From the IMG/VR virus record IMGVR_UViG_3300048091_000193, positions 52,697-116,696 of that record: a stretch of DNA of 64,000 nt, one strand, 5' to 3'. Of the stretch, positions 2,825 to 61,738 are shown one piece after another. The notes under the pieces were generated by a model. That model saw nothing but the letters and a program-made list of their open reading frames with translations, was not told the origin of the DNA and searched no databases. A program made the translations under genes and the position numbers. The DNA is from a virus (taxonomy: Duplodnaviria > Heunggongvirae > Uroviricota > Caudoviricetes). Within the stretch, counting starts at the first letter, position 1. Each line of letters begins with the position of its first letter.

Positions 2825-3622
2825 ATGTCTCGCTCTATCGACCGTGCTACCGCCCGCAAGTCCCGTAGGTCCGAAAAGAAAGACAACCGCGCCGTTCTCC
2901 TCCAAGCCGTCGAAGAAACACGGCGAGTCCCTGTGCGGGCTTCCCGCGCGCCCCTGAAGCCTCTCACCGAGGCGCAGCGCGTCTATGGCTCCTGCATTCG
3001 CGCCAGTCGTGTGACCTTCGGCATCGGCCCCGCCGGCACCGGCAAGACCTGGTTCGCCGCTGCGCTCGCCGCGGAAGCTCTCCAGGCCGGCGACATCAAG
3101 ACTATTGTCATCGTCCGCCCGGCTGTCGAGGCCGGCGAGAACCTCGGCTTTCTGCCTGGCGACCTGAATGAGAAGGTCGATCCGTTCATGCGGCCGATCT
3201 ACGACGCCCTGTCCGAGCGGATGGGATCCAGCGCGATGGAATATGCGATCAAGGCTGGCGCGATCGAGGTTCGCCCATTGGCGTTCCTGCGCGGCTCGAC
3301 GCTCAAGGACTGCTGGGTGCTGGCCGACGAAATGCAGAACACCACGCCGGCCCAGATGAAGATGTTCCTCACCCGCATCGGCGAGAATAGCCGCTTCATC
3401 GTCAACGGCGATCTCAGCCAGACTGACATCGAGGGACCGTCGGGCCTCGCCGATGCGCTGCGCCGGCTGGACGGTCTGCGCTTTGTGTCCAAGGTCGAGT
3501 TCACGACAGCGGACATTGTCCGTGATCCGATTTGTCAAGCAATCGCTGCTTGCTATGAGAAACCCCGACCAGTAGAGAACGATGGTGCGCAGGTCCGGCA
3601 TCTATTCGATCAGGCATCTTGA
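2825..3622 (+). CDS. phoH: PhoH-like P-loop ATPase
   Basis: GIGPAGTGKTW Walker A; VLADEMQN Walker B; typical phage PhoH length. Start refined to ATG 2825 after AGGAG (ORF track has an upstream in-frame extension from 2666). Confidence 0.85.
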   Translation: MSRSIDRATARKSRRSEKKDNRAVLLQAVEETRRVPVRASRAPLKPLTEAQRVYGSCIRASRVTFGIGPAGTGKTWFAAALAAEALQAGDIKTIVIVRPAVEAGENLGFLPGDLNEKVDPFMRPIYDALSERMGSSAMEYAIKAGAIEVRPLAFLRGSTLKDCWVLADEMQNTTPAQMKMFLTRIGENSRFIVNGDLSQTDIEGPSGLADALRRLDGLRFVSKVEFTTADIVRDPICQAIAACYEKPRPVENDGAQVRHLFDQAS

Positions 3623-4358
3623 CTCTGATCGCCGATACATTGGTAGCGCGGTTTCCATCTATCATCGATGGGCCGCGCACCGAAGTTATTTGACCAAGGG
3701 TGGTCATCAGAACTCGTATCTTCAACGAGCCTGGGTGCGTTATGGCGCGGATCGTTTTATATTCGAGGTTATTGAGTATGTGGATGTCGATCTCCTGATT
3801 GAGCGCGAGCAGCATTGGCTCAATCAATTCGCTCGGCCACAGCTTTTCAACCTTCGTCGCGATGCGCGATCAAATAAAGGCATCCGTCTCAGCGACGAAA
3901 CGAGGCAAAAGCTTAGCGTGATAGCCAAGCGGCGGGGTGTCTCTCCAAAGTGCCGTGCGGCAGCGGTTAAAGCTCAGACGGGAAAGAAGGCGACCGAGGC
4001 TACGCGCGCCAAGATGGTCGCGGCCAAGATCGGGAAGATCCACTCTGACGCCGCTCGGCTCAAGATGAGCGAGCAGGCCCAGCGACGAGGCGAGGGTCAT
4101 ATAGGCAAGATTCGCAAGGCACTCCTGCGCACCTGGTTACTCACTGACCCAGCCGGCGCGGAACACATCGTCACCGACATCATTGCTTTCGCTAAACAAA
4201 ATGGGCTGTCGGCGAATGAACTCCGCAATGTAGCGGATCGACCGGGCCGAACGCATAAGCGCTGGGTCTCTCGTCGGCTGTCTATTACGCGCAATCCTGA
4301 CTCGCAGAGCTATATTGCATCTAACAGCGACAACGCGCTGAAAGATCAAGCAGCCTGA
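3582..4358 (+). CDS. GIY-YIG homing endonuclease (I-TevI-like) with C-terminal NUMOD-like repeats
   Basis: GIYSIRHLDSDRRYIGSAVSIYHRWAAHRSY GIY-YIG motif; repeated basic helix motifs in the C-terminal half; overlaps the phoH 3' end. Confidence 0.75.
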   Translation: MVRRSGIYSIRHLDSDRRYIGSAVSIYHRWAAHRSYLTKGGHQNSYLQRAWVRYGADRFIFEVIEYVDVDLLIEREQHWLNQFARPQLFNLRRDARSNKGIRLSDETRQKLSVIAKRRGVSPKCRAAAVKAQTGKKATEATRAKMVAAKIGKIHSDAARLKMSEQAQRRGEGHIGKIRKALLRTWLLTDPAGAEHIVTDIIAFAKQNGLSANELRNVADRPGRTHKRWVSRRLSITRNPDSQSYIASNSDNALKDQAA

Positions 4359-10897: not shown

Positions 10898-11506
10898 GTG
10901 TTTTCTCCTCTGTTGTGCTCGGGGCAGGTCCAATGGATCTGCCCCTTTTTCTGGCTGGAAATGATGATCGAATCCGTATCCATCAACGATCGAACCCCGA
11001 TTTCGATCTGGACGAAGCTCAATCCCCTCTGGTGGCTGGTCGGCCCCGATGGCTGGACCGTCCCTGAAATCAACAACGGCTCGCCGTATCTGCCGGACGT
11101 CAAGAACATCTGGCTGCGCCGCTTCTACTGGTTCTTCTGCCGCAACCCGCTGATGAATTTCGTTGGCTATGTGCTGGGCGCGGAAGACAAGAATTACACC
11201 GTCTACGGCTCGGCGCCGGTCCTCAAGACCACGCTGCGCGACGCTGATCCCCCGATGACGGGCTGGAAGTGGTCTGTGATCGTGTCCGGCTTTAGCCTGG
11301 GCGCTGCCGTCGTAGCGTTGGCATTCGCGGCGCTGGCTTGGCTGGTCAGCTGGATCTTCGCGGTGCCGCTGGTGTTTGCGCTTCTCAAGGCGATCGGTCT
11401 GCTGCCGTTCGTGGCCTATTGGGGCGGCAAGGTCGAGTTCTATCTCGGCTGGCGCGCACATTCGGGCGGCTACGGCCTCAAATTCGTGGTGACGGGCAAT
11501 GACTGA
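10898..11506 (+). CDS. Hypothetical membrane protein
   Basis: Several hydrophobic helices (WSVIVSGFSLGAAVVALAFAALAWLVSWIF...). Competing minus-strand ORF 10826..11632 has low-complexity Arg/Ala-rich composition. Confidence 0.35.
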   Translation: MFSPLLCSGQVQWICPFFWLEMMIESVSINDRTPISIWTKLNPLWWLVGPDGWTVPEINNGSPYLPDVKNIWLRRFYWFFCRNPLMNFVGYVLGAEDKNYTVYGSAPVLKTTLRDADPPMTGWKWSVIVSGFSLGAAVVALAFAALAWLVSWIFAVPLVFALLKAIGLLPFVAYWGGKVEFYLGWRAHSGGYGLKFVVTGND

Positions 11507-11708
11507 CATTACCCCGTTCGCCCGCTTCAAGGGCAAGATGCTGAAGGACGTCGCTGACGCCATCAATGTCGAGGCTGATCGCCGGCACCTGTCGGTGAAC
11601 GTCCTCGATCCGGACCGCGGTATGGGCTTCAATATCGACGTCGATCCGCGCCGGCTGAACGTCTACGTGGACGAGGACTTCTATATCACGAAGTTCACGA
11701 TCAAATAG
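11499..11708 (+). CDS. Small protein, possibly peptidase-inhibitor I78-like
   Basis: DPRRLNVYVDEDFYI resembles the I78 family RLNV signature (weak). Confidence 0.35.
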   Translation: MTDITPFARFKGKMLKDVADAINVEADRRHLSVNVLDPDRGMGFNIDVDPRRLNVYVDEDFYITKFTIK

Positions 11709-11737
11709 GGACGGGACTAGGCAGCTTTTTGCCGCCC

Positions 11738-11760
11738 TGTTATAATCAGTTCTGACTTAA
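11738..11760 (+). promoter_or_regulatory. Extended -10 promoter TGTTATAAT with half operator cagttCTGACTTa
   Basis: Read from sequence; precedes a gene with strong RBS GGAGGA. Confidence 0.45.
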
Positions 11761-11783
11761 CTTTTATCCTGGAGGATACCCCT

Positions 11784-12146
11784 ATGAAGCGTCACGAACT
11801 GCACCATCCCGCCAACGTCGTCGCTGTCGCGGCCGGCAAGCGCCTGTCTCACGACATCACCCTCGGCGCCACCCAGGCCGACAACGAGAAGATCGCCGGC
11901 CAGGCCGAGACCTTCGCTATTACGACCGTCGCTGGTGCCCTGCGCCAGACCGATCTGGTCGCCGGCGAGGAAGCTCAGGAAGTCACCGTCTACCTGAAGA
12001 CCCTCGGCGCAGGTGCCGCGGCTCAGATCAACGGCGCTTTCGTGGGCGGCACCAAGATCACCCTCGACACGGCCGGCGAGTTCTTCCGCGCCAAGTCACT
12101 GAATGGCAGCTGGGTCATTCTGAACAACACGGGCGTTCTCGCCTAA
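11784..12146 (+). CDS. Hypothetical protein (120 aa), probably highly expressed
   Basis: Perfect GGAGGA SD 8 nt before ATG; Ala/Gly/Thr-rich composition; function unknown. Confidence 0.6.
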   Translation: MKRHELHHPANVVAVAAGKRLSHDITLGATQADNEKIAGQAETFAITTVAGALRQTDLVAGEEAQEVTVYLKTLGAGAAAQINGAFVGGTKITLDTAGEFFRAKSLNGSWVILNNTGVLA

Positions 12147-12225
12147 TCGGGTAGGGTCGTCGCCGCGAGGCGTCGAGGCTGTAACGCACGGATGGGATGA
12201 GCATGCCCGTGCCTCGTTTGGTTAT

Positions 12226-12301
12226 TTCCAGGTAGCTCAGTTGGTAGAGCTTCCCGCTGTTAACGGGACGGTCGCTGGTTCGAGTCCAGCCCTGGGAGCC
12301 A
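12226..12301 (+). tRNA. tRNA-Asn (anticodon GTT)
   Basis: Cloverleaf folded by hand: acceptor ttccagg/cctggga, D-arm gctc-agttggta-gagc, anticodon arm tcccg-ctGTTaa-cggga, 5-nt variable loop, T-arm gctgg-ttcgagt-ccagc, discriminator G, encoded CCA. Confidence 0.8.
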
Positions 12302-12303
12302 TT

Positions 12304-13473
12304 TCAGTCCGGAGCGCCTCGCTTTCGGATCAAGGTCATCATTTCATATCGCAGATTCATGCGGCCGTCGGCGACCATGCGCACCACGGACCGGAGATAG
12401 CCGCCCGGATTGCGGATCTTCGGCGTCGAGGAATTGGCGTCGTTCTCGTAGAGCTGCAAGACCAGGCAGACAGCGGCCGCGGCCTTTAGGGGCCCGATCT
12501 TCTCGCTCGCCTCAGACCAGACCGTCGGCGAAGCCCCGAGGGTCGATCGCAGCACCCGCGCCGCCGCGACCAGATCCACCTCGCTTCGCGGCGTCTCGAC
12601 GTATTCGAGGATCGCAGGGCAGGCTTCCACTGTCAGCTCCACGGGGACAATGTCGTATGGAAGGGAAGGACTTTCTCCAAGCTCAGCTTCCCCGGAAGCC
12701 TCTTGTTCCAAATCTCGGTTAAGCGATTCTGAGGGTTTTGTTTCAATGAGGCTGCACCTCTTGCCCCCAGAGGCGGCTGAATAGAAGGTTTCTTCAGCTA
12801 AGGATCTCAGGCGACGCCAGCGATCGGTAACGCGCTCCAGCGCCCGCTCATCGTGCGACAGATTGCGACGGGGCGTTTCAGCGACCAACGATTCAAATGC
12901 GTCAGCGACGCGCACAGCGTCGGCTTGCGGGTAGCGCTGGGCGAGGGTGGTCAGAACGTCTTGCGCGGCCCGCCGGCAGATTGTGATCTCGTCGAACAAG
13001 CGCGACCTGGCGTTACGTGCAATGTCCTGTTCCCGGATCTCCTCGACCCACTCGCCGCGGCGATCGTAGACCGGCGTCAGATCGAACCCGAAGACATCGA
13101 CGATCTCGCCGCCTCGATTCTTGACCGAATAGCGCTTGCCGTTGGCGCTGTCTTTGGGCGCGATCAGCTGGAGATCGATTAGGCTGCGGATCCCATAACG
13201 CACCGCGCGCACCGACAGACCTGTTCGCCGGCACAGATATTCGTTCGATGGCCAGACCAGGACCTTGCCGGCGATCATCTTCTCACCCCAGCAGCCGATC
13301 AGCTCGCCGAGCAACTGCCGGCAGGCCGGGCGCAGCAACAGCGCCTTCATGGCGTCTCTGCCGGCCGCGGCCAGTTCCTTACGTGATACGGCGCGTTCAT
13401 CGCTGACGCGATGTCGCCTTGCCTCCAAGGCAGCCGTCGTCGGCCGCCTGGAGCCACTTAGCTCCAACTGCAT
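12304..13473 (-). CDS. repC: RepC-type replication initiator (repABC plasmid family)
   Basis: VLVWPSNEYLCRRTGLSVRAVRYGIRSLIDLQLIAPKDSANGKRYSVK matches the RepC N-terminal winged-helix signature (vFPSN..L..R..G.s..TLRRhl..L...GLI.RrDSpNGKRY); C-terminal NPGGYLRSVVRMVADGRMNL matches the RepC C-terminal sPGGYLR motif. AT-richer central linker (~12660-12810) sits where repC origins usually lie. Confidence 0.8.
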   Translation of the reverse strand: MQLELSGSRRPTTAALEARRHRVSDERAVSRKELAAAGRDAMKALLLRPACRQLLGELIGCWGEKMIAGKVLVWPSNEYLCRRTGLSVRAVRYGIRSLIDLQLIAPKDSANGKRYSVKNRGGEIVDVFGFDLTPVYDRRGEWVEEIREQDIARNARSRLFDEITICRRAAQDVLTTLAQRYPQADAVRVADAFESLVAETPRRNLSHDERALERVTDRWRRLRSLAEETFYSAASGGKRCSLIETKPSESLNRDLEQEASGEAELGESPSLPYDIVPVELTVEACPAILEYVETPRSEVDLVAAARVLRSTLGASPTVWSEASEKIGPLKAAAAVCLVLQLYENDANSSTPKIRNPGGYLRSVVRMVADGRMNLRYEMMTLIRKRGAPD

Positions 13474-13523
13474 TGTCTTTCCCCAATTTGGGGCAAGCGA
13501 GAGCGTTCACCGAATCGGTGTTC

Positions 13524-13636
13524 TTGACACGATGCAAGCTGGAGGGCATATTGGGGTTGTGTTCGAGACCCCGTGCCTAACAGCCGGTTCAGCTCTAAAA
13601 AGCCCTGCTAAGTTTGCCGCTTAGTGGGGCTTTTGC
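13524..13636 (+). ncRNA. Putative small antisense RNA (ctRNA-like) opposite the repC leader: promoter TTGACA(13524-13529), 17 nt, CATATT(13547-13552), then intrinsic terminator
   Basis: Canonical -35/-10 with 17-nt spacer on + strand; about 40 nt downstream, AAAA then an 11-bp hairpin (gccctgctaag/cttagtggggc) then TTTT at 13598-13634. The region is antisense to the upstream region of minus-strand repC. Confidence 0.35.
13598..13634. terminator. Bidirectional intrinsic terminator hairpin flanked by A-tract and T-tract
   Basis: aaaagccctgctaag-tttgccg-cttagtggggctttt; terminates the + strand small RNA and sits between minus-strand RHH gene and repC. Confidence 0.5.
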
Positions 13637-13640
13637 TTGC

Positions 13641-13853
13641 CTAAGTTCCTGATTTAACTGAAAATTCCTTTTCCAAGGCAGACGCGATAGCACTCTGACG
13701 CGACGCATACTTTCCTTCGGCGACAGCCTGTGCGATCGCTTCGCGAATCACTACAGGGATCCACACGTTCGTCTCCGTCATGCCGCTACTGCGGCGTTTC
13801 TGGCGAAGGCGATCAACTCGAGCGGCGTTCTTCTGGTCTGTCGTCATCGGCAT
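13641..13853 (-). CDS. Ribbon-helix-helix (Arc/CopG/ParG-type) DNA-binding protein
   Basis: 70 aa; beta-strand VWIPVVI followed by two helices REAIAQAVAEGK and SRQSAIASALEKEF, a typical RHH layout; directly upstream (minus strand) of repC. Confidence 0.55.
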   Translation of the reverse strand: MPMTTDQKNAARVDRLRQKRRSSGMTETNVWIPVVIREAIAQAVAEGKYASRQSAIASALEKEFSVKSGT

Positions 13854-13859
13854 TCCTGA

Positions 13860-14300
13860 ACTCGTAACGTTCCGAGTAATGTCCGATTCTGGGTGATTTG
13901 CCTAGCGGTCTCAAGTCAAGATTGAAGACCAGGTAGAGGACCGCCGAGGGCTTCCCGAGATAGCTATCATACGAAGTGAAAAGTATCCGCTGACAACCCT
14001 AACGATTGATTCGCCTGCTTTGGAGGCTAAACTTGGATTCGCATAACATACATTATGGAATATCCACGCTCCATTTCTACCGTTAAGCCTATGGCGGGCA
14101 ACGATTTTCTAAGTTCTTTGGAACAAAACTCAAGTATAGCGGTTGACAACAGACGCGGAAACAGTTCATTTTTGCACTGTCAGAACTAACTTATACCGCT
14201 CAGATTTCCAGTCGGAAGCCTACGTCGTCCCTTTCTCGCTCTGCTATATACAACTTATCGAAGCAGACAGTCGCTCATAAACCGAGCGGAGAAAGGATTA
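13860..14300. other. AT-rich non-coding region between divergent RHH and XRE genes; candidate regulatory or origin region
   Basis: Lower GC than flanks. Contains TTGACA-like hexamer, degenerate class I half-site tgtcagaactaactta (14178-14193), gattcgc repeats and a ctatatac -10-like box at ~14246. Confidence 0.4.
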
Positions 14301-14310
14301 GGAGCGATTA

Positions 14311-14757
14311 ATGTTGCACACGGAGGGCGCTACAGTGTCCAAACTACAGAGCCGGTCGGGTTTCACCTCGACGGGTGATATCAAAATCCACGAGTTCATC
14401 TCGAAGCAAATCGACGTTGTGAAGTCGATGGGCCAGACCCAGCGCGATATCGCCGAGGCTGTGGGCTACGACAAGCCCGCCATGATCAATATGTTCAAGG
14501 CCGGCACGGTGAAGGTTCCTCTCGAAAAGGTCCCGGCACTAGCCAAGGCCCTACATGTCGATCCGGGCTTTCTGTTTCGTCTTGCTCTGATGCAATACTG
14601 GAAGAACGACGCCGATGCGATTGCGCAGGTGTTCGGGACGGTCCTGACCGCAAACGAGGTCAAGATCATCGATAAGATCCGTGCTGTGTCCAAGGAGAGC
14701 GATCCTCCGCTGACCCGCGATGCGGAAGCGAAGTTGAAGGCGGCGTTCGGCGTCTAA
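14311..14757 (+). CDS. XRE-family (Cro/CI-type) HTH transcriptional regulator
   Basis: TQRDIAEAVGYDKPAMINMFKAG helix-turn-helix; AAAGGA/AGGAG RBS before ATG 14311. Confidence 0.7.
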   Translation: MLHTEGATVSKLQSRSGFTSTGDIKIHEFISKQIDVVKSMGQTQRDIAEAVGYDKPAMINMFKAGTVKVPLEKVPALAKALHVDPGFLFRLALMQYWKNDADAIAQVFGTVLTANEVKIIDKIRAVSKESDPPLTRDAEAKLKAAFGV

Positions 14758-14829
14758 CAAGACGTCGATCGCTAGGGAATACGTTTTAGGCGGCCCTTGT
14801 TCGGCCGCTTAAAATATGCCAGACAAACA

Positions 14830-14845
14830 AAGTCAGTATTGACTT
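14830..14845 (+). promoter_or_regulatory. Class I operator AAGTCA-gtat-TGACTT
   Basis: Read from sequence; followed by CTATAT box at 14869-14874 immediately before ATG 14882 (possible leaderless start). Confidence 0.45.
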
Positions 14846-14881
14846 ATCCCTTAAACAGAGAGCGCAGGAACTATATCAACT

Positions 14882-15106
14882 ATGCAAACCCGTATTCGCG
14901 AAGTGAACCTCGAGCGTGCCATCGAACTATCGGAAGAACTGACTGATAAGACCGTCCACGAGGGCGATTCCTCTACCGTCTTTAGCGGCACGCATCCGGA
15001 GCTCGGCTCAATCCACATCGCGATCCCTCCACTCGGCAATTCCCTGCTTCTCCCCGCAGATCTTGCCGCAGTTCTCCCTGTTGTAATCCAGGGTTTGTCT
15101 TTGTAG
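14882..15106 (+). CDS. Small hypothetical protein (74 aa), possibly leaderless
   Basis: ORF sits between two class I operators; no SD; -10-like box ends ~7 nt before ATG. Confidence 0.3.
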   Translation: MQTRIREVNLERAIELSEELTDKTVHEGDSSTVFSGTHPELGSIHIAIPPLGNSLLLPADLAAVLPVVIQGLSL

Positions 15107-15117
15107 TCTGTTTTTAC

Positions 15118-15131
15118 AGTCAACACTGACT
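15118..15131 (+). promoter_or_regulatory. Class I operator cAGTCA-acac-TGACTt upstream of the cobT-like gene
   Basis: Read from sequence; AAAGGGGAA RBS follows. Confidence 0.45.
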
Positions 15132-15154
15132 TACACGCCAAAGGGGAATACGAA

Positions 15155-17680
15155 ATGAACAAGGTCCAGATCCTGCGCGAGGTGATCACTAAGCTGGTCC
15201 CCATGCTCACGAGTCGCGGTCTGCGCGTTACGCAGGTCGGGGCGAAAGCCTTTGTTCAGACCGATGCAAAAACCCTCAAGCCCGTCCGCGTCAATATTCC
15301 GCATCTGCCGGATGACGCGGACGAAGCTTTGATCTTCGCAGTTCAAGGCTTCATCGATCACGAGGTCGGGCACGTTCTCGACACTGACTGGGCCGCAGTT
15401 GCGAAATCGCTGGAGCTCGGCCGATCCCTCGCGGATTCCCGCAAGATGAAGCCCGCAGTCGCCGCAGAGATGATGCGACAATACCACAACATCGTCGAAG
15501 ACCCGTTCGTTGAGCGCAAGATGGTCGAGCGCTTCAAGGGCTCCGCCTACAACGTCGACAAGCTCTACGACATCTTCATCGCCAAGATCTCCAAGCCCGC
15601 GATCGATGCCGCGACAACGCCGATCGAGCGCTTCAACTGCATTCTGGTGCCCCTGATCCGCTCCTGGGCGGGCCAGCAGCGGTTCATCGATTTCATCACG
15701 GTCAATGGCTACGACAAGGATCCGCTGGTTGAGAAGTTCACGAGCCTGGTGCCCGCGAAGGTGCGCCAGGACATCGGCAAGGCCAAGACGTCCTGGGATA
15801 CGCTCGCAGCCGCGCAAGCGATCTTCGACGTCCTGCATCCGGAGCCTCCGCCGCCTCCGCCGGCACCCGAGCCGAAGGGCGACGACCAGGACGATAACGA
15901 TCCTGATCAGGGCGACGCCGACGATCAGAATGATGATCAGGATCAGGACGATTCCGACAGCGAGAAGTCGGACGATCCGGATGGTGAGGGTTCGAACGAG
16001 GACAAACCGGAAGACGAGGACGACAAGGGCTCGGGCGGCGAGGAGCAGGAGGATACCGACGATGAAGGTGACGCCGGGGATGGTGAAGCTTCTGCAGAGG
16101 ATGATGACGACGCCGCAGACAAGGACGGCGATCGGGATGGTTCTGATGCAAGCGACGACGATGGAGAAGCCGACGAGAAAGACGACGGCGAGTCCGAAAA
16201 GGACGATGCTGACGCCGCTGGCGAAGGCGACCCGGACGATAACGACGATGCCGAAAACGATGGCGCCGACGGTAGCGAGGAGAGCGACGACCAGAATTCC
16301 GGCGATGATCAGTCGGGTGACGATGGCGCCGACGGGTCAGATGACGCTGACGCCGATGAGGATTCCGGCGATGACGCTGACGGATCTGACGAGAACAAGC
16401 TATCTGACGAGGCCGCTGATGATGAAGATGGCTCGCCAAAGGACGGTGATAGCGAGGATGCAGGGTCGGATGACGCCGGCGACGGCGATCAGGACGAGGA
16501 CTCGGATAGCGAGGGCGCCGAAGGCAAAGACGAAGTAGAGGGCGACAGCAAGGACGATCAGAAAGACGCCGAGGAAGGCGATGGCGCCCCTGCGCCCGCG
16601 GCCGACGACGAAGAAGGTGACGGTGAGGAGACCGAAACCGAGGAGAAAGCCGAGCAGTCCGACAACGAGATTGAACATGCGCCCGAGCCTAATCCGTTCG
16701 AGACGCTGGACGTCAAGCCTGGCGATGACCTGGCGAAGGCGATCGAGTTCATCATCACCAATGAGGCCTCGCGCGAGATCCGCGACGCTGATTACCGCGT
16801 CTACACGACCGAGCACGACACCGTCAAAACGATGGTCGTGCCGGACGACATGCCGATTTCGTGGGTCGGGTATCTCGACGACCGCACCCGTCACATGGTT
16901 GCGCCGATGCAAAAGGACATCGAGCGCATGATGGCCGCGCGCAGTCAGATCGTGAAGGTTCCGGGCTATCGTTCCGGACGCCTACATAGCGGATCCCTTC
17001 ACCGGCTCCAGGTCAACGACGACCGCGTGTTTCGTCGGATCCAGGAGAACAGGACGAAGGAGACGGCTGTCTCGCTCCTGATCGACAACTCCGGTTCGAT
17101 GCACGGGAACAAGATGGAGACTGCGATGGCCGCGGGCTACGCGCTGTCGCAGACGCTGGAGCGCGTCGGCATCAAGCACGAGGTTCTGGGCTTCACGACT
17201 GGGTCATATCCGAAGGGTGTTTGGGAGGAGCAAGAAGCCGAGGAGAGGCGTCTGGGTAAGTGCTTCTCCCGCATCTGCACGGTCGACATCACCGTCTATA
17301 AGGACTTCAACGAGCGTGTGACCCCCGAGGTCAAGAAGCGGTTCGCTGCGGCGCCCCGCTACGCGCGCTCGGCCGCGAACGTCGACGGCGAGTCCGTGCG
17401 CGTTGCAGCTAACCGCCTCAACCAGCGCAATGAGCCCCGCAAGGTGCTGATGGTGCTGTCGGACGGTCAACCGTCCGGCGCATCGCACCACCCCGAAGAA
17501 ATCTATGCCGACCTGCATCGTGCGGTCGCGCAGGCAGAAGCCGCGAAGATCGAGACCATCGGCATCGGTATCATGGATGCGTCGGTCAAGACCTTCTATC
17601 CGAAACATGCCGTGCTGCAGAACCTGGGCGATCTTCCGAAAGCAGTGATGGGCGAGCTCAAGAGGATCCTGACACAATGA
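15155..17680 (+). CDS. cobT: CobT-like protein: N-terminal CobT domain, ~280-aa poly-acidic linker, C-terminal von Willebrand A domain
   Basis: C-terminal vWA MIDAS motif LLIDNSGSMHGNKM; gene adjacent to an AAA+ MoxR/CobS-like ATPase, as in phage cobS/cobT pairs. The D/E/G-rich tract spans about 15836-16690. Confidence 0.8.
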   Translation: MNKVQILREVITKLVPMLTSRGLRVTQVGAKAFVQTDAKTLKPVRVNIPHLPDDADEALIFAVQGFIDHEVGHVLDTDWAAVAKSLELGRSLADSRKMKPAVAAEMMRQYHNIVEDPFVERKMVERFKGSAYNVDKLYDIFIAKISKPAIDAATTPIERFNCILVPLIRSWAGQQRFIDFITVNGYDKDPLVEKFTSLVPAKVRQDIGKAKTSWDTLAAAQAIFDVLHPEPPPPPPAPEPKGDDQDDNDPDQGDADDQNDDQDQDDSDSEKSDDPDGEGSNEDKPEDEDDKGSGGEEQEDTDDEGDAGDGEASAEDDDDAADKDGDRDGSDASDDDGEADEKDDGESEKDDADAAGEGDPDDNDDAENDGADGSEESDDQNSGDDQSGDDGADGSDDADADEDSGDDADGSDENKLSDEAADDEDGSPKDGDSEDAGSDDAGDGDQDEDSDSEGAEGKDEVEGDSKDDQKDAEEGDGAPAPAADDEEGDGEETETEEKAEQSDNEIEHAPEPNPFETLDVKPGDDLAKAIEFIITNEASREIRDADYRVYTTEHDTVKTMVVPDDMPISWVGYLDDRTRHMVAPMQKDIERMMAARSQIVKVPGYRSGRLHSGSLHRLQVNDDRVFRRIQENRTKETAVSLLIDNSGSMHGNKMETAMAAGYALSQTLERVGIKHEVLGFTTGSYPKGVWEEQEAEERRLGKCFSRICTVDITVYKDFNERVTPEVKKRFAAAPRYARSAANVDGESVRVAANRLNQRNEPRKVLMVLSDGQPSGASHHPEEIYADLHRAVAQAEAAKIETIGIGIMDASVKTFYPKHAVLQNLGDLPKAVMGELKRILTQ

Positions 17681-20739: not shown

Positions 20740-21047
20740 TGTTCGGCATCATCGTTACGGGAAAAGAGGCTCGATCTGGCAATCCAGAGCGCAGCATCGT
20801 CGCGCAAGCTGGCGAGAAGTTCTGGGTCTGCACTGAACGAGATGGATGGGTCGACGCAACGAGTTTGCGATGCACGGATCCGAAGGCCGTTCCGGGAGAC
20901 ATCAAAATCTTCAAGACGACCGAGTGCGCTGAGAAATTCGCCAAGAAATGGAAGGGTCACCCGTGGTGGTGCCAGCCCGATACCTATGAGGTCGTTGAGC
21001 TTCACGCCAAGACCAAAGTCGTCGTCACTGGATATGAGGTAGCCTAA
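20739..21047 (+). CDS. Hypothetical protein (102 aa)
   Basis: ATGA overlap with the previous gene; ORF track shows a longer in-frame upstream extension from 20673. Confidence 0.4.
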   Translation: MFGIIVTGKEARSGNPERSIVAQAGEKFWVCTERDGWVDATSLRCTDPKAVPGDIKIFKTTECAEKFAKKWKGHPWWCQPDTYEVVELHAKTKVVVTGYEVA

Positions 21048-24000
21048 TGCACACGGTTTTGGCAGCGCGATCATCGTTCTCGATCGGCGAAGGTATTCTA
21101 ACGGTCGAGGAGCTCGTTGAGCAGTCGAAGGCGGCCGGCGCAACCGCGATCGCGCTCACCGACACGATGACGATCACCGGAATGATCGACTTCACCAATC
21201 GCGCCAAGAAGGCCGATATCAAGCCGATCCTGGGCTGCCGGCTACGCATCTCCACCAACGTCGCCTGGCGCAAGACCAAAGACGACAAGAAGGCGCCGCC
21301 TGAATACTACCTGACCGTCTATGTCGTGTCCGAGCTGGGTCTGAAAGCGCTGTTCCGGCTGCTGACCCTCGCCAATTCTGCGGACCGCTTCTACAACACT
21401 CCGAAGCTTGAGATCGAGGACGTCTACGAGGAACTCGACAACCTGACCGCGGGCGACATCATCATCACCTCCGGTGACGTCAACGCGCTGACGGCGCATC
21501 CCATAGCCGAGGGTGTGTTGGCCGCGATCGCATCGCGGCTGGGCGAAGCCGGCGTCTATCTGACGGTCTCGCCGATCAACACGCCCTATTACGACACGCT
21601 GAACATCAAGGCGGTGAAGCTGGCCGAGAAGCTTGATCTGCAGCTGCTGGTCACGCGGCCCGTGCTTTACGCCGAGACTGCGCCGGATGCAGCGAATGAG
21701 GCAGATGCGGCCGACGTCATGAATGCGGTCACCCGCGGCGTCAAAATGAGCGAAAACTGGGTTCAGTCGCCGGCGTTCCGCGATCTGCACCCGCAATCGA
21801 TGCAGCAGTGGATCACCCAGGTCAAAGCGATGCAGGCGCGGCTTGCCGCGCGCGGCACGGTCGTCGGCCCTGCCCTCGCGCAGGGGCTGCGCAACACCAT
21901 CGGTCTGGCCAATCGCATCGGCTATATTTGGTCGAAAGCGCCGGTGTCGCTGCCGAAGATGGCAGACGACGAGTTCGCAACACTGGTCGCGGCGGCGCGG
22001 GCCGGATGGAGTCAGCGACTGAGCAAACCCGCCTTCGGTCATCAGCCGACCCGTGACGAGCTGGTCACCATCTACAAGCCCCGCCTTGAATACGAGCTCT
22101 CCGTTCTCAAGAAGCTGGGTTTCGCCGGCTACTTTCTCCTCGTGATGGACATCGTCAACTATGCAAAATCAAATGGTATTCTGGTCGGTCCTGGTCGCGG
22201 CTCTGTCGGCGGCTCGCTTGTTGCTTATCTTGTCGGCATTACTGATTGTGACCCTATCCGTTTCGATCTCCTTTTTGAGCGTTTCATCAATCCTGATCGT
22301 ATCGATCTTCCTGACGCCGACCTTGATTTCATGTCTGCGCGACGTGGCGAGATTATTGATTATCTGGTCACCAAATACGGGCAAGCGCGCGTAGCCGGCA
22401 TCAGCAACTTCGGCAAGCTTGCGGCTGCATCTGCGATCCGCAACGTCGGCAAGGCCTTCGGACTTAATGAGTTCGACTACGCCTGTTCGAAATTCGCACC
22501 GAAGGAACATGGCGCCAACGTAAAACTGCCCAAGGCGGCCGAGATCGCGCCTGAGATCGGCGCTTTCCGCGACAAATACACGCCGATCTGGGACGTCATG
22601 GTGCGGCTCGAGGGCGTGATGAACATCATGGGTCGCCACGCTGCCGGCGTCGTCGTCGGCGGATGCGATCTCGTGGAGCGCGGCGTCATCGAGCGGCGCA
22701 AAGACGGCGCCACGATGAATTGGGACAAGCGCATCGTCGAGGATCAAGGCCTGGTCAAGGTCGATATTCTGGGCCTCGAAACGCTGGATCTGATCGACCT
22801 GTCGGTCAAATTCATTCGCGAGCGCACCGGTCGCCACGTCGACCTGATGCAAATTCCGCTGGACGATAAGCTCGTGCTGGACGCATTCGCGGCCGGCAAG
22901 ACAACGGGCATCTTTCAGTTTGAGTCCGGCGGCATGCGACGCCTTCTCAAGGAGCTCGGCAAGGACGGCGTCATCACCTTTGACGACATCACGGCCGCGA
23001 CCGCACTGTATCGACCGGGTCCGATGGAGTCGGGCATGATGGATAGCTACTGGAAGCGCAAACAGGGTCAGGAGAGCGTCGATTATGACCATCCGCTGCT
23101 CGAGGAACCCCTGAAGCCGACCTACGGCGTGTTCGTCTACCAGGAACAGGTCATGCGCGCGTCAGTCGTGATGGCTGGCTATTCCGGCGCCGACGCCGAC
23201 AAGCTGCGCAAGATCATGGGCAAGAAGCTGCCCGAGGAGATGGCCAAAGAGCGCGGCAAGTTCGTCAATGGCTGCGTCGCGACCGTCGGCATCACCCCGG
23301 ACGAAGCGGGCGACCTGTTCGACAAGATCGAAGGATTCGCCGGCTACGGCTTCAATAAGAGCCATTCGGTCGAATACACCCTGATTTCCTATCAGGCGAT
23401 GTGGCTCAAGGTGAATTACCCCGTCGAGTTCTACGCCGCAGCGCTGTCGCTGATGAAGGAGGAAAAGCTAGCCTCGATCCTCAAGGATGCGAACGCATTC
23501 GGGGTGAAGGTCGTCATGCCCGACATCAACAACTCGTCGGCGCGCTTCGAGATCCTCAACGACACCTGCCTGGCGATCCCGTTCAACCGGATCAAGGGCA
23601 TCTCCGACAAGGCCTCGGTCGCGATCATGAAGGCCCGCGAGGGCGGCAAGTTCAAGGACAAGGCCGATTTCGTCTCAAGGGTCGAGCGACGCACCTGCAA
23701 CAAGCGCGTGGTGGACGCTCTGGAGGCCGTGGGTGCGTTCGCGCGCATCGAGCCCGGTCAAGTGCCGGCGCACGACCCTAGCCGCATCATGGCCCAGCGG
23801 GAGCTCATCCCAGGCCTGATCGTGGATACCGTGCCGATTAACCGCGACATGGCCAACGACAAGTTCACCAAAGCGAAGCTGGGACAGATCGTCGGCGGGT
23901 ATCGCCAGGCCCTCGGCAACGATGGTCAGGGCGTCGCGCCGGTGATGGGTAAGAATGCTCGCTTCATGGTGATCTTCGACGGCCCCTCCTCTGGCGAGGA

Positions 24001-24406
24001 GCGTCAGGGCGCATTTACCTGGGGCGACAATTTCCGCTGGGTGGCAGATGCCATGTCGGAACACGGCCTGGAGCGATCCGACGGCTATTGGACTGGTCTG
24101 ATCAAGCGCCCGAAGGAAGGCAAACAGGTGTCTCCGAAGGAGATCGAGCTCTATGGGCCGTATCTGGACAAGGAAATCGACCTGCTCAAGCCGCCTTTGA
24201 TCGTGCTTCTTGGATCGATGACCGTCCGCAACTTCTTCCCCGACTTCAAGGGCAAGGCGTCCGACAGTGCGGGCAAGATCATCTATTCCAAGCGCTATGA
24301 CGCCAATTTCGTCATCGGCTTCAATCCCGGCGAGATCTACCACGATCCGGACAAGCAGCTTGCCTTGAACGACGTCTTCGCGGTCGTCGCCGGGTTCCTC
24401 GAATAA
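21047..24406 (+). CDS. dnaE: DNA polymerase III alpha subunit (DnaE) with N-terminal PHP domain and a C-terminal family-4 UDG-like domain replacing the usual OB/tau-binding region
   Basis: GFAGYFLLVMDIVNYAKSNGILVGPGRGSVGGSLVAYLVGITDCDPIRFDLLFERFINPDR DnaE palm signature; HhH region KISDKASVAIMKAREGG. The last ~170 aa (VIFDGPSSGEERQGAFTWGDNFRW...VIGFNPGEIYHDP) resemble UDG family 4 motifs (GEAPG..ED..G.PFvG.aG / HPS). Confidence 0.9.
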   Translation: MHTVLAARSSFSIGEGILTVEELVEQSKAAGATAIALTDTMTITGMIDFTNRAKKADIKPILGCRLRISTNVAWRKTKDDKKAPPEYYLTVYVVSELGLKALFRLLTLANSADRFYNTPKLEIEDVYEELDNLTAGDIIITSGDVNALTAHPIAEGVLAAIASRLGEAGVYLTVSPINTPYYDTLNIKAVKLAEKLDLQLLVTRPVLYAETAPDAANEADAADVMNAVTRGVKMSENWVQSPAFRDLHPQSMQQWITQVKAMQARLAARGTVVGPALAQGLRNTIGLANRIGYIWSKAPVSLPKMADDEFATLVAAARAGWSQRLSKPAFGHQPTRDELVTIYKPRLEYELSVLKKLGFAGYFLLVMDIVNYAKSNGILVGPGRGSVGGSLVAYLVGITDCDPIRFDLLFERFINPDRIDLPDADLDFMSARRGEIIDYLVTKYGQARVAGISNFGKLAAASAIRNVGKAFGLNEFDYACSKFAPKEHGANVKLPKAAEIAPEIGAFRDKYTPIWDVMVRLEGVMNIMGRHAAGVVVGGCDLVERGVIERRKDGATMNWDKRIVEDQGLVKVDILGLETLDLIDLSVKFIRERTGRHVDLMQIPLDDKLVLDAFAAGKTTGIFQFESGGMRRLLKELGKDGVITFDDITAATALYRPGPMESGMMDSYWKRKQGQESVDYDHPLLEEPLKPTYGVFVYQEQVMRASVVMAGYSGADADKLRKIMGKKLPEEMAKERGKFVNGCVATVGITPDEAGDLFDKIEGFAGYGFNKSHSVEYTLISYQAMWLKVNYPVEFYAAALSLMKEEKLASILKDANAFGVKVVMPDINNSSARFEILNDTCLAIPFNRIKGISDKASVAIMKAREGGKFKDKADFVSRVERRTCNKRVVDALEAVGAFARIEPGQVPAHDPSRIMAQRELIPGLIVDTVPINRDMANDKFTKAKLGQIVGGYRQALGNDGQGVAPVMGKNARFMVIFDGPSSGEERQGAFTWGDNFRWVADAMSEHGLERSDGYWTGLIKRPKEGKQVSPKEIELYGPYLDKEIDLLKPPLIVLLGSMTVRNFFPDFKGKASDSAGKIIYSKRYDANFVIGFNPGEIYHDPDKQLALNDVFAVVAGFLE

Positions 24407-58980: not shown

Positions 58981-59634
58981 TCAACCCGCAAAGTCTGCAT
59001 CTATCAGCGATCGCGGCGCGGCCAGTCCGGCGTGATCGACATTGAATTTGCTCACATTTTGGCCATCTGGGAGCTCAATCGCGGAATCTGCATTTGGCGA
59101 AAGGGCGATATCGTTAAATAGCGATTGAGCGACAAGAGCCTTGGCGAGTTGAACCAAGATGTCGTGACCCCAATCCCCCTTGGCCATATTGTAGCACCAT
59201 ACCACCACCTGACAGTTCGCTTTCGTATAGCCTATCCCAGGCTCGCGTTGGTCCAGGGATGGCACGAAGGGGCTATTTGGCTCGAAAACAAACGACATAT
59301 TGGTCACCGAGCACGTTCCGCGGGCCAATTTCTGCTCGATCCAACCCTGGTCAAGATCAAATGGAACGTTGATGATAGCGGCTCTCTTGCGCGCGCTGTT
59401 CCACAGCCTCGACGCCCAAGCGCTCCGATCGACCCGAAGACGCTCCAAGGATCGCTCAACCGCCCTCTCGTAATATCGGCGCTTCCGGTCTGCCGGCGAG
59501 AGATCCAAGAAACTGCGCTTCGACCGAGTATCCCGACATTGCCGACACCTGTCGAAAAGCCGGCCAGTCGGCGCAAGATCGTATTGATCGCTAGGCTTAG
59601 ATTTGGCGCAGGACCGACAGACTTTAATTCGCAT
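58981..59634 (-). CDS. HNH homing endonuclease
   Basis: Cys-rich N-terminus (CRSCAKSK...CRQC) and HNH motif YTKANCQVVVWCYNMAKGDW. Confidence 0.6.
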   Translation of the reverse strand: MRIKVCRSCAKSKPSDQYDLAPTGRLFDRCRQCRDTRSKRSFLDLSPADRKRRYYERAVERSLERLRVDRSAWASRLWNSARKRAAIINVPFDLDQGWIEQKLARGTCSVTNMSFVFEPNSPFVPSLDQREPGIGYTKANCQVVVWCYNMAKGDWGHDILVQLAKALVAQSLFNDIALSPNADSAIELPDGQNVSKFNVDHAGLAAPRSLIDADFAG

Positions 59635-59754
59635 AATCGTTATATAGCTAAATCGCTAAAGAACGACGACGAAAAGATTTCGCCTAATAACGAAAAAGCG
59701 AGATCGCTATAGAACGATCCCGCTCTTTAGTGACATCGCTAAATCGCGAAGTCG

Positions 59755-60450
59755 TTATGCGGCAAGGCTAACTGGACCCGTTGGGTTCGGCACGGTCAAC
59801 GATCGGGCGCCGGTCGGCGGGGCAGGGGGCTTTGGCTCGCTCAGGTATCGACGCAGCCGCAGGGAGTTCCGGATCGCCCAAGGCATCACCAGCGCCGTGG
59901 TCAGATAGAACGCGGCACAGATCGCCTCGATCTTGTCGGGAAGCGTTAAGCTCCAAGTTGGGAAGACATCGAGCAGGTTGTGAAAGATGGGCGACAGAAC
60001 CGCCAGCAACAGGGCAGGGCGGGTGCCGAAGACCATCGCCGCGCCCATGACGCCGAAGGCATAGAACAGAGCTCCGCCGTGAGGCACGAAGACGGATAAA
60101 ATAGTGGAGAGGGGAACGGTAACCAGAAGCGTCGCCAGAGTATAGAACAGGGCGGCGTTATTGGTCGGCACCGGCGGATCAGTCTCCGACGGGTAGGTTT
60201 CCAGGTCCTGACCGGCAATCGGGTAAACGTTGCTGGAGTAGCCATCCTGGGCCGATTCAGGCCAGGCGTCGGCGCCAAACATCAGGACTTCGCCGGCGAC
60301 ATCGTCGAGTGCCGCGCTCATCTGGCACAGGGCCAGGTGGTCGAAGGATTCGAGACCAATGTTCTTTGCGAATTGGGCTGCCGTTGAGACGAAAAGCTCC
60401 GAGAGGTCATGCTTCATGCCCTCGAAATCAGACGCCGAGTGGAACGACAT
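59755..60450 (-). CDS. Hypothetical membrane protein (acidic N-terminal domain, 4-5 TM helices)
   Basis: Protein-like composition unlike shadow ORFs; hydrophobic helices LATLLVTVPLSTILSVFV, ALFYAFGVMGAAMVF, ICAAFYLTTALVMPWAI; no competing + strand gene. Confidence 0.45.
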   Translation of the reverse strand: MSFHSASDFEGMKHDLSELFVSTAAQFAKNIGLESFDHLALCQMSAALDDVAGEVLMFGADAWPESAQDGYSSNVYPIAGQDLETYPSETDPPVPTNNAALFYTLATLLVTVPLSTILSVFVPHGGALFYAFGVMGAAMVFGTRPALLLAVLSPIFHNLLDVFPTWSLTLPDKIEAICAAFYLTTALVMPWAIRNSLRLRRYLSEPKPPAPPTGARSLTVPNPTGPVSLAA

Positions 60451-60771
60451 AATAGTGGTTTCCTTTGCTGCTGACCGTCAACCACGACGGAGACTACCTA
60501 CGTTGAGGTGGTCACAGGTTCTCTTTCTGTTCTCTTGTCGTCAAGTAGGAAACATATCCGAATTGGGATTTATTTTCCGGCGGTCGGTGACGATTTAGCG
60601 AAATCGTGCTATCGTTCTTTCAGGCCGACCCTATTGCCTTACAACCCGCCCAAATGTTGCGCAACGTGGAACTGTGTCAGAATTGACTTATTTCCAAGGC
60701 ATCCGGCATTCGGGCAACAGTTTGTTCATCCTTTTCTGTTCATCGGCGATTGATACTTGAAGGAATACCCA

Positions 60772-60981
60772 ATGAAATCAAAGAACGTGGACTTTACTAA
60801 CCTTAACGAGCGACAACCGACGCGATGGCGCCCCGATCCGCACCGACGCGGTCGCATCATCGCCAGCAAGAAGCTCTACAAACGAAAGCCTCGCACAAAA
60901 CGTGACGAGGCTTTCGACTTTAGTGGGGTGGCGTTATCATCTTTGCCTACTGCGAACCTGCGTCTGATCGCTATATTCTAG
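60772..60981 (+). CDS. Small basic hypothetical protein
   Basis: AAGGAA RBS 6 nt before ATG 60772. Confidence 0.3.
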   Translation: MKSKNVDFTNLNERQPTRWRPDPHRRGRIIASKKLYKRKPRTKRDEAFDFSGVALSSLPTANLRLIAIF

Positions 60982-60984
60982 TCA
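60972..60984 (+). promoter_or_regulatory. -10 TATATT (60972-60977) with half operator TAGTCA; conserved 5' UTR gcgcacagcacaaagga
   Basis: Read from sequence; UTR resembles those at 8056-8106 and 17862-17899. Confidence 0.35.
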
Positions 60985-61016
60985 CTCAACAACGCGCACA
61001 GCACAAAGGATACCGA

Positions 61017-61301
61017 GTGATTACACTGCCAAGCCTTCTGACCCTGGAGAACGTCACTGCCGCACCAATCGAAGCGGGTGACGCCGGCATCATCCTGAAA
61101 GCCGACGGGTCTTTTCGTGTCTTCAACTGCCACGAGGGGCTTAATCCTGACAACGTGACCGAGGCCCAGAAAGACCAGGCCCGTAAAATGATGGCGTTTG
61201 CTGTCGCACTGCAGGTGCCGGCCGTCATGGAGATCCTTTACGATTTCGCCCGCAACCCGGACATCGTCGGTTCGCTGTTTGATCGAGGTCAGTTCAATTG
61301 A
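61017..61301 (+). CDS. Hypothetical protein (94 aa), GTG start
   Basis: AAAGGA RBS 6 nt before GTG. Confidence 0.4.
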   Translation: MITLPSLLTLENVTAAPIEAGDAGIILKADGSFRVFNCHEGLNPDNVTEAQKDQARKMMAFAVALQVPAVMEILYDFARNPDIVGSLFDRGQFN

Positions 61302-61669: not shown

Positions 61670-61738
61670 CTCTTTCCGCTCGACAACCGTTTTTTGCTTT
61701 GCTAGTGCAATTCAGCACTGACTTACATAGAGGACAAG

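Follow-up and report, generated by a model that had tools for sequence, protein, structure and literature searches.

A solo repC replicon with a predicted antisense RNA gene in a large phage related to RHEph10 and pLM21S1

The closest described relatives of the locus analyzed here belong to a lineage in which phages and plasmids share a RepC-type replication system. pLM21S1 is a plasmid-like prophage with such a system, without an integrase and related to phage RHEph10 (PMC4447125, PMC5537653), and it is also mentioned in a survey of phage-plasmids (PMC7969092). Phages B1VFA and V1VFA-S, described in 2025, carry parA, parB, repC and a DNA-binding regulator and have been termed "possible prophage-plasmids" (PMC12509600). 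Here we analyzed a stretch of 64,000 nt from a tailed-phage record (IMGVR_UViG_3300048091_000193, positions 52,697 to 116,696; the whole stretch is called the window below), in which repC and a small ribbon-helix-helix (RHH) gene, read against the neighboring genes, and a divergent regulator gene form an island at positions 12,226 to 14,757.

Two groups of plasmids provide the background for its control. In the model for repABC plasmids, a large stem-loop in the repC leader leaves the Shine-Dalgarno (SD) sequence free, and binding of a counter-transcribed RNA (ctRNA) leads to refolding into local stem-loops (PMC3155836, PMC6090056). Reports of solo "repC family" replicons concern only plasmids that have a repABC replicon as well (PMC10194956), and in pRmeGR4a and pSmeLPU88b (repC2) an antisense RNA is a negative regulator (Izquierdo et al. 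2005, cited in PMC10194956). Going by this published description, the window resembles the latter group in having repC outside a repA/repB operon and an antisense RNA upstream of it. It differs in two respects: the description as cited there mentions no RHH partner, and no replicon other than the solo repC was seen in the window, which comes from a phage genome.

Our preferred reading, to which we assign a probability of about 0.72, is that the island serves as the plasmid-type replicon by which a large siphovirus-like phage-plasmid from the RHEph10/pLM21S1/B1VFA lineage is maintained. Because this lineage has been published, neither a RepC initiator in a phage nor the phage-plasmid reading is new. 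New here are the regulatory elements: a predicted gene for an antisense RNA, two leader hairpins that covary, a long-range inverted repeat and operator-like palindromes. Current Rfam models miss all of them. In the literature that we found on the lineage, the antisense RNA is not described, and the leader hairpins, the long-range repeat and the operator-like palindromes are not mentioned.

The RepC initiator, its neighbors and its relatives

The coding features of the island and its putative origin are as follows.

12304-13473, minus strand: repC, encoding a RepC of 389 amino acids (aa) of the solo type, with Pfam, NCBIfam and PHROG matches
12649-12748, strand not applicable: putative origin (oriV), the lowest-GC 100 nt in repC (gene nt 726-825)
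13641-13853, minus strand: small RHH gene, 70 aa, named from an orthologue profile and PGAP labels; probably co-transcribed with repC
14311-14757, plus strand: XRE/helix-turn-helix (HTH)-type regulator, 148 aa, divergent from the RHH-repC unit

A first-pass annotation of this region had recognized RepC from its motifs and proposed a profile search as a check. In that search the RepC profiles of both Pfam and NCBIfam matched above their cut-offs: RP-C (PF03428) at RepC residues 9-176 (E = 2.3e-38, 132.2 bits, cut-off 24.4), RP-C_C (PF11800) at residues 278-383 (E = 2.2e-18, 66.8 bits, cut-off 32.6), and the NCBIfam equivalog NF040974 (RepABC_RepC) over model positions 12-392 of 393 (200.6 bits, cut-off 150). 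PHROG 22671, "replication protein", also matched (4e-47). The signature motifs WPSNEYLCRRTGLS..., KDSANGKRY and NPGGYLR are present in the translation and fall on invariant columns of an alignment of 17 RepC sequences.

The same annotation had called the island repABC-type, which is right for the initiator and not for the operon. In canonical loci such as L072, open reading frames (ORFs) of 411 and 335 aa lie upstream of repC, as expected where repA and repB directly precede it, whereas in the window repC is preceded by the 70-aa RHH gene and then by the divergent HTH gene, and no homologue of the ParA or ParB-domain proteins of pLM21S1 was found in the window. The replicon is a solo repC with an RHH gene where repA and repB would be.

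RepC is 59-64% identical to its counterparts in phage-like contigs, ~47% to solo RepC of Microvirga and ~30% to RepC of repABC plasmids. In a neighbor-joining tree, all phage-type and solo RepCs cluster in a single clade, and a long branch divides them from the RepCs of canonical repABC plasmids. Within the clade, sub-clades track host families (Rhizobiaceae, Methylobacteriaceae, and a group that joins the window with Bradyrhizobium sp. 179), which argues for long residence in the lineage. The solo repC copies of Microvirga megaplasmids, with an RHH remnant upstream, nest among the elements of Methylobacteriaceae. Many of the Microvirga and Methylobacterium megaplasmids and contigs among our loci (L011, L017-L041) have one to three solo repC copies, each accompanied by the same antisense RNA gene and an RHH remnant, and in L011 a WGR-domain gene stands beside repC, as in phage-plasmids. 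The distribution of these copies suggests that the replicon has been exchanged between phage-plasmids and megaplasmids.

The low-GC center of repC pointed out in the first-pass annotation was recovered: the lowest 100-nt segment (12649-12748) has 47% GC compared with 62% for the gene, and the minimum lies at a gene fraction of 0.61-0.66 in 12 of 15 relatives. In p42d, the essential A+T-rich oriV region is found at nt 450-850 of repC; replication is lost when nt 658-822 carry synonymous changes, and RepC is cis-acting (PMC3155836). We infer, on good grounds, that oriV of the present replicon is located inside repC at 12649-12748.

The small protein upstream of repC on the same strand had been read as an RHH protein. 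In line with this reading, PGAP labels the orthologues "ribbon-helix-helix", and a profile of ten orthologues matched the NikR RHH domain (E = 5e-4 and 1.3e-3) and, weakly, ParD and MazE4 (E = 0.05-0.07) as well as HicB. An orthologue occupies the same position in ten of the phage-like and plasmid loci checked. The divergent gene, previously proposed to encode an XRE regulator, has a weak HTH_3 match (E = 0.006) and a match to PHROG 8, "transcriptional regulator" (3e-7). Its orthologues (31-65% identity) are annotated as "helix-turn-helix transcriptional regulator" and are found at the same position in 14 loci. Between the two genes lies the AT-rich spacer that had been estimated at ~440 bp; it measures 457 bp (13854-14310) and has 46% GC, compared with ~59% for the window.

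The same three-gene block, with the HTH gene divergent from the genes for the RHH protein and RepC, occurs in pLM21S1, RHEph10, B1VFA, V1VFA-S, RHph_N1_10, X66 and pRlX6. The module was also found in three IMG/VR contigs, in a 139-kb contig of Bradyrhizobium sp. 179 (RepC 59% and regulator 65% identical), and in two other assemblies. Counting pRlX6 and pLM21S1, six complete circular "plasmids" with sizes of 115-120 kb carry it, namely those of Methylobacterium oryzae, Methylobacterium sp. AMS5, Shinella, Pararhizobium, Rhizobium beringeri (pRlX6) and Sinorhizobium sp. LM21 (pLM21S1). The gene order typical of RHEph10 and pLM21S1 is found in the window: DnaB, primase, ligase, repC with the RHH gene, HTH gene, small ORF, CobT, CobS, sigma factor and DnaE. 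In RHEph10 and B1VFA, repC and a small ORF on the opposite strand and the divergent regulator occupy this same slot, after DnaB, primase and ligase and before the run of small ORF, CobT, CobS and sigma factor, and pLM21S1 is colinear with the window over ~50 kb of gene order. The window and the pLM21S1/RHEph10 lineage further share the antisense promoter and terminator and the leader hairpins described below, tRNA genes nearby and the lack of a visible integrase; the earlier observation that there is no integrase was borne out, as no integrase domain was present in any ORF scanned.

Sequence divergence from this lineage is considerable. Identities to the window proteins are only 34-40% for RepC and ~20-33% for the RHH protein, and for the proteins labeled "repC family" or "plasmid replication" in Rhizobium phages RHEph10, B1VFA, V1VFA-S, RHph_N1_10 and X66 the RepC identity is 34-36%. 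A megablast search of 11000-16000 against GenBank phages returned zero matches, so the element is not a known phage at the nucleotide level. A query for sequences identical to the RepC of the window likewise matched no record. Judged by synteny and protein similarity, it is a distant new member of the RHEph10/pLM21S1/B1VFA lineage. Its closest relatives by RepC (59-64%) are unpublished contigs, including that of Bradyrhizobium sp. 179, which points to a different host family; the host is probably Bradyrhizobium or a relative.

In one relative (L016, plasmid pRlX6 of R. beringeri, CP140813.1, circular, 119 kb) repC at 2941-4087 is annotated as two coding sequences and the tblastn match is split. 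A frameshift, a sequencing error or a pseudogene might account for the split, and the element is still recorded as a plasmid.

That split gene is one of three observations that would fit a recently captured, decaying and functionless plasmid fragment; the others are that the island is the only opposite-strand block in that part of the genome and that its closest non-phage relatives are RepC genes of megaplasmids. We find such a fragment hardly credible in the window, where repC is an uninterrupted, full-length ORF that keeps every invariant RepC residue and GC is normal except in the regulatory spacer. Moreover, the three-gene module and its non-coding elements keep their position in relatives whose RepCs are 34-63% identical, and the RepC tree follows host families.

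A predicted antisense RNA gene in the repC leader

Three features make up the predicted RNA gene between the RHH gene and repC.

13524-13552, plus strand: antisense RNA promoter, TTGACA-N17-CATATT, from a promoter scan (10 of 12 consensus positions)
13552-13641, plus strand: antisense RNA gene, ~80 nt, predicted start near 13559, matched by covariance model R1
13602-13612 with 13620-13630, plus strand: 11-bp terminator stem, preceded by A5 (13597-13601) and followed by a TTTTGCTT tail

The first-pass annotation had proposed a small RNA here, antisense to the leader, from a plus-strand promoter followed by an A-tract, an 11-bp hairpin and a T-tract. Both parts exist: the promoter matches the consensus as listed and ranks first among the four promoter-like sites that a scan of 3.2 kb returned (1.3 expected), and the A-tract, hairpin and T-tract span 13597-13638. 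On their own these elements allow another explanation, namely that no antisense RNA is made, the hairpin being a bidirectional intrinsic terminator or attenuator of the RHH gene and TTGACA a chance match or a protein site. The hairpin begins 7 nt past the RHH stop codon, the A5 flank in the window would give a minus-strand transcript a U5 end too, and one promoter-like match is weak evidence alone. Several strand-specific properties, however, make this explanation very unlikely.

The first concerns stability. The hairpin folds at -23.0 kcal/mol on the plus strand (z = -4.95) and at -15.4 kcal/mol on the minus strand (z = -2.04), which makes the plus-strand version more stable by 7.6 kcal/mol. 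The remaining properties come from the antisense strand of repC as read in 36 related loci. A TTGAC[A/G/T/C] box is present on this strand in all 36 and lies 52-59 nt from the repC start in 35, the sole outlier being L005, for which a wrong choice of start codon is probable. A -10-like hexamer follows 16-18 nt past the box. The box aligns with the -35 element of the canonical ctRNA promoter, that is, with the promoter region of the experimentally established repABC ctRNAs (PMC3155836, PMC6090056). In all 36 loci, a GC-rich hairpin flanked by AAA and TTTTGCTT(T)G occurs 70-110 nt beyond.

Within the stem, pairing is kept while the sequence varies by lineage. Among 22 non-redundant loci, 201 Watson-Crick pairs, 27 G.U pairs (on the antisense strand) and 8 mismatches were counted with a stem-anchored method, supplemented by a model-based alignment. 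Two earlier MAFFT alignments of the RNA (A2 and A3) put the stem out of register, so that RNAalifold recovered it only partly, and they were replaced. Read on the repC-sense strand, these 27 G.U pairs would turn into C.A mismatches, and only three pairs are biased the opposite way. A strong U-tract (TTTTGCTT) is likewise conserved on the antisense strand only, the sense-strand U-run being down to 2-3 in most relatives. The U-tract and the G.U bias together indicate that the primary role of the hairpin is to terminate an antisense transcript and not the RHH transcript.

A covariance model (R1, alignment A5) was built from 22 relatives with the window excluded. Its only full-length match in the 64-kb window is at 13552-13641 on the plus strand (44.1 bits, E = 2e-10); on the reverse strand it reaches 17.7 bits with the hairpin only. 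Over 95 sources, R1 matched every clade locus, in each case antisense to and upstream of repC, including the held-out RHEph10, pLM21S1 and Shinella loci, and it matched one of ~55 canonical repABC loci, weakly. This single match, in L072 (3824-3908, minus strand, 21 bits, E = 0.007), is at the position of the canonical ctRNA and is consistent with remote homology between the clade RNA and the canonical ctRNA. In the R1-based alignment, the outer eight pairs are 100% paired, five of them with compensatory changes, and none of 500 shuffles reached the observed values.

The RNA gene thus has the traits of a counter-transcribed RNA: it is antisense within the repC leader, has its own promoter and an intrinsic terminator, and is conserved. 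Conservation of promoter and terminator, the held-out covariance model and covariation uphold the antisense RNA idea, with a predicted length of ~80 nt, and the presence of an antisense RNA gene upstream of repC is well supported by this comparison.

In two Microvirga scaffold records, L028 (~3610-3910) and L030, runs of N start a few bases past the antisense -10 box, and the RNA body lies 300-900 nt further away. These runs are possibly scaffold gaps or insertions. Deliberate masking was considered and rejected, as the records are at scaffold level and the model finds the RNA elsewhere in both loci.

Leader structures, candidate operators and a proposed model of repC control

Three structures were recognized in the leader between the RHH stop codon and repC, and three elements in the spacer upstream of the RHH gene.

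13480-13493, minus strand (plus-strand hairpin 13481-13493): hairpin B, mRNA 5'-CCCCAAAUUGGGG-3', with the SD arm
13508-13520, minus strand: hairpin A, mRNA CACCGAUUCGGUG, with a GANTC site inside
13629-13641 with 13492-13504, minus strand: long-range inverted repeat (I5), 13 nt, 85% complementary, bracketing the antisense RNA gene
13914-13886, minus strand: putative RHH-repC promoter, TTGAGA-N17-CAGAAT, from a promoter scan, with GANTC in the -10 box
13860-13877, minus strand: 18-bp palindrome ACTCGGAAC/GTTACGAGT downstream of the -10 box, a probable operator
14038-14060, strand not applicable: palindrome TTCCATAA-N6-TTATGCGA in the divergent spacer, a candidate operator

The 3' arm of hairpin B holds most of the Shine-Dalgarno sequence GGGGA (13480-13484), and the hairpin also appears in the predicted fold of the window leader. 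Its anti-SD and SD arms covary: CCCC/GGGG in the window is replaced by CCCUC/GAGGG, CCCUUG/CAAGGG and CCUCC/GGAGG at other loci. When arms from the same locus were paired, 4.9 of 5 positions matched, compared with 3.0 of 5 for arms taken from different loci. Hairpin A is present in all clade loci checked and shows compensatory changes (own arms 5.0 of 5, cross-locus arms 2.8 of 5), and its wobble pairs favor the sense strand. It aligns with CACCGAUUUGGUG, which lies inside the Rfam S-element match of canonical repABC loci.

The long-range repeat joins sequence just past the RHH stop codon (mRNA GGCAAGC...) to sequence just before hairpin B (...GCUUGCC). It is kept as GGCAAAGC/GCUUUGCC in most loci (GGCAA(A)GC / GCUU(U)GCC), with one compensatory change only, in L003 (GACAAGC/GCUUGUC), and among the folds predicted for 17 loci it closes the leader in 9, the window not being one of them. 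Its arms may form an RNA helix that closes the leader, or they may be two protein-binding sites.

Canonical repABC leaders contain the same blocks in the same order: GTCAA (the -35 complement), the hairpin CACCGAUUUGGUG (in the window CACCGAUUCGGUG), a UUGCC block, the SD hairpin and a GGGGCCUUUUUCUUUUGC-type terminator. Hairpin A, the UUGCC block and the SD hairpin can be aligned with the S-element region both by eye and by MAFFT. The consensus of hairpin A with the canonical leaders is CACCGAUUYGGUG. These blocks, shared in the same order, indicate that the control region of the window is a divergent homologue of that of canonical repABC plasmids. As with the ctRNA (RepE/IncA/inc-alpha) of p42d and pTiR10, the antisense gene lies just upstream of repC and has a sigma-70-type promoter and an intrinsic terminator, and the leader forms stem-loops that include the repC ribosome-binding site. 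RNA length and gene context differ: the repABC ctRNA measures 46-59 nt whereas the predicted RNA of the window has ~80 nt with extra 5' sequence, and repA and repB lie upstream there whereas the window has the RHH gene instead.

A similar gene order is known from pMV158, whose dual copy control combines the RHH repressor CopG with the antisense RNAII acting on repB, the gene of a rolling-circle RepB. There, too, a small RHH repressor gene, an intergenic antisense RNA and the rep gene follow each other, and transcriptional autorepression is combined with antisense control, as is proposed below for the window. pMV158 differs in that its RepB is a rolling-circle protein whereas RepC is of the theta type, and its RNA and host range are unrelated, so the likeness is one of function and not of family.

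In L007, L008 and L010, the sequence just before the RHH start also contains the "AGAATCGG" -10 block and, with it, the CTCGTAAC/GTTACGAG palindrome. The TTCCATAA-N6-TTATGCGA palindrome is present in all ten spacers compared (the window, 13854-14310, and L001, L002, L007, L008, L010 and L013-L016), which range from Rhizobium phages to Bradyrhizobium and Methylobacterium elements, and is perhaps an operator for the HTH regulator. A third palindrome, TAAGTCA-N4-TGACTTA, is clear in most relatives and degenerate in the window (~14180-14194). Taken together, the palindromes look like a multi-operator switch region.

GANTC sites, the target of CcrM-type methylation, number 10 in the 2.6 kb of 12200-14800 where ~3.3 would be expected from the window average (1.28/kb), a modest enrichment of ~3-fold. 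They include 13885 in the RHH-repC -10 box, 13512 in hairpin A and 12725 in the low-GC center of repC. This density recalls the repE promoters of repABC plasmids, which are rich in GANTC (PMC6090056).

Based on these features, a model of repC control may be proposed. RepC made from the RHH-repC transcript would start theta replication, probably in cis, at the A+T-rich intragenic origin around 12649-12748, and its supply would be limited at two levels, by RHH autorepression and by the antisense RNA. Autorepression by the RHH protein probably works through the palindrome that directly follows the -10 box of its promoter. A constitutive antisense RNA of ~80 nt (13559 to ~13640, plus strand) would pair with the repC leader, which begins after the RHH stop codon, and shift it toward a fold with the ribosome-binding site of repC trapped in hairpin B, the same logic as ctRNA/S-element control in repABC plasmids. 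Since hairpin B has no U-tract, translational occlusion is likelier than the transcription attenuation of p42d and pTiR10 (PMC6090056). The divergent HTH regulator and the spacer palindromes would probably link the replicon to the decision between lysis and lysogeny.

Probable function of the replicon in the phage genome

The first-pass annotation had offered two roles for the island, an origin-and-initiator module of the phage or a maintenance replicon of a phage-plasmid. The second is better supported, as relatives with the same synteny have been found as virions and also as complete circular plasmids of 115-120 kb, in agreement with the literature on the lineage. Under the first, RepC and its internal origin would be the only or main lytic replication initiator of a virulent phage, and the control elements would be inherited baggage or timers of early replication. 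We regard this as unlikely, even though the module sits amid genes for DnaB, primase, ligase, DnaE, a gp32-like single-strand-binding protein (SSB), FEN and a RecA-like recombinase, RepC is the sole initiator recognized in the window, partition genes are absent from the window, and RHEph10-type phages and B1VFA were isolated from plaques (PMC12509600). Feedback by an antisense RNA and an autorepressor would suit a steady low copy number and not runaway lytic replication. Furthermore, six relatives that share the synteny exist as complete circular plasmids in cultured bacteria, pLM21S1 persists as a plasmid without an integrase (PMC4447125), and parA and parB are present in relatives (PMC12509600). 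Both roles could be combined, and the RepC replicon may also initiate replication when lytic growth begins.

Several results count against a maintenance replicon controlled in the proposed way. Mitomycin C did not induce pLM21S1. RHEph10-type phages were isolated as plaque formers, and plaque formation and plasmid carriage have been shown together in no single member of the lineage. The ParA and ParB-domain proteins of pLM21S1, as well as its DEAD helicase and terminase, had no homologue in a search of the window. In pLM21S1 the ParA and ParB-domain genes lie 70-75 kb from repC, outside the colinear region (ParA, ParB and terminase span 70-80 kb), so by colinearity parA and parB are expected past the end of the window. 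With regard to the RHH protein, its assignment is weak, coming from low-scoring profile hits such as that of the 70-aa ORF to Pfam MazE-like (18.5 bits, E = 0.002, under the cut-off of 22). As for the leader, blocking the antisense target in silico lowered SD accessibility in 13 of 17 loci, a modest shift, and left that of the window unchanged, and for this reason the refolding step is worded conditionally here.

The Rfam results weigh on the same side. The models ctRNA_p42d (RF00489, gathering threshold 50 bits) and S-element (RF00490, 47 bits) had no match at the gathering threshold in the whole window and none at E <= 10 in the 2.8 kb or 221 nt searched; both also miss eight clade loci. In canonical repABC loci, used as a positive control, they scored 52-73 and 55-84 bits, respectively. 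Formal membership of these two families is therefore rejected. The resemblance to the repABC ctRNA that had been suggested earlier holds in the sense of a divergent homologue, by the aligned leader blocks, and fails in the sense of Rfam family membership.

With these points included, we still prefer the maintenance replicon, and by this reading the window element would have episomal lysogeny. A broader scenario is possible and is offered only tentatively. The RHH gene, antisense RNA, leader and RepC might form a distinct class of repC replicon, unrecognized by Rfam, that co-diverged with siphovirus phage-plasmids of 115-140 kb in Rhizobiaceae, Methylobacteriaceae and Bradyrhizobium-type hosts and seeded the solo repC copies of Microvirga and Methylobacterium megaplasmids. 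A single RepC with its intragenic origin might then serve both prophage maintenance and the start of lytic replication, with the HTH regulator and the conserved operators switching between them.

At the other end of the island, one further feature adjoins repC.

12226-12301, plus strand: tRNA-Asn (GTT), found by ARAGORN; Rfam tRNA score 64.6 bits

As noted earlier, this tRNA gene abuts the repC stop codon; it ends 2 nt from it and is convergent with repC. The relatives have different sets at the same place: Asn in L007; Trp, Ile, Phe, Asn and Met in L008; Met and Ile in L012; and Met in L003. B1VFA and V1VFA-S encode Asn-GTT and Met-CAT tRNAs (PMC12509600). An integration site was considered and rejected, because these sets differ and an integrase is lacking (PMC4447125). 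The variable sets indicate that tRNA-Asn is a phage tRNA, a member of a tRNA cluster downstream of repC, at the end of a plus-strand unit and not an attachment site.

Outside the RepC island, the window represents the replication and nucleotide-metabolism half of a large phage. DnaB, DnaG (primase) and DnaE, which had been listed as the phage's own, were all confirmed. The other genes recognized encode PhoH, a GIY-YIG endonuclease, an ATP-dependent ligase, CobT, a CobS/MoxR ATPase, a sigma factor, the gp32-like SSB, FEN, the RecA-like recombinase, SbcCD-like proteins, an SPFH protein, a class II ribonucleotide reductase, ThyX, dUTPase, an exonuclease and a methyltransferase.

Some of these genes have unusual features. 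The CobT-like VWA protein (15155-17680, 841 aa) contains an insert of ~300 aa that is nearly pure Asp/Glu/Gly/Ser, with spurious long ORFs on both strands. DnaE (polymerase III alpha, 21047-24406) has a C-terminal domain of the uracil-DNA glycosylase superfamily (residues 969-1078), and the same fusion is found in the Bradyrhizobium sp. 179 relative (L006/L007). A homing-endonuclease-like gene (GIY-YIG/NUMOD3) at 3582-4358, between PhoH and the DnaB region, has a counterpart at the corresponding place in L007. A second group of opposite-strand ORFs is located at 58981-62254 (217, 231 and 180 aa, one with a DUF4118 membrane domain); no homology of this group to the ParA island of pLM21S1 was detected.

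The regulatory anatomy described here leads to a testable model for low plasmid copy number in large phages. It also suggests which sequences may set incompatibility between co-resident phage-plasmids and rhizobial plasmids, and the seed alignment of the RNA can be used to annotate the same RNA in the megaplasmids of Methylobacteriaceae.

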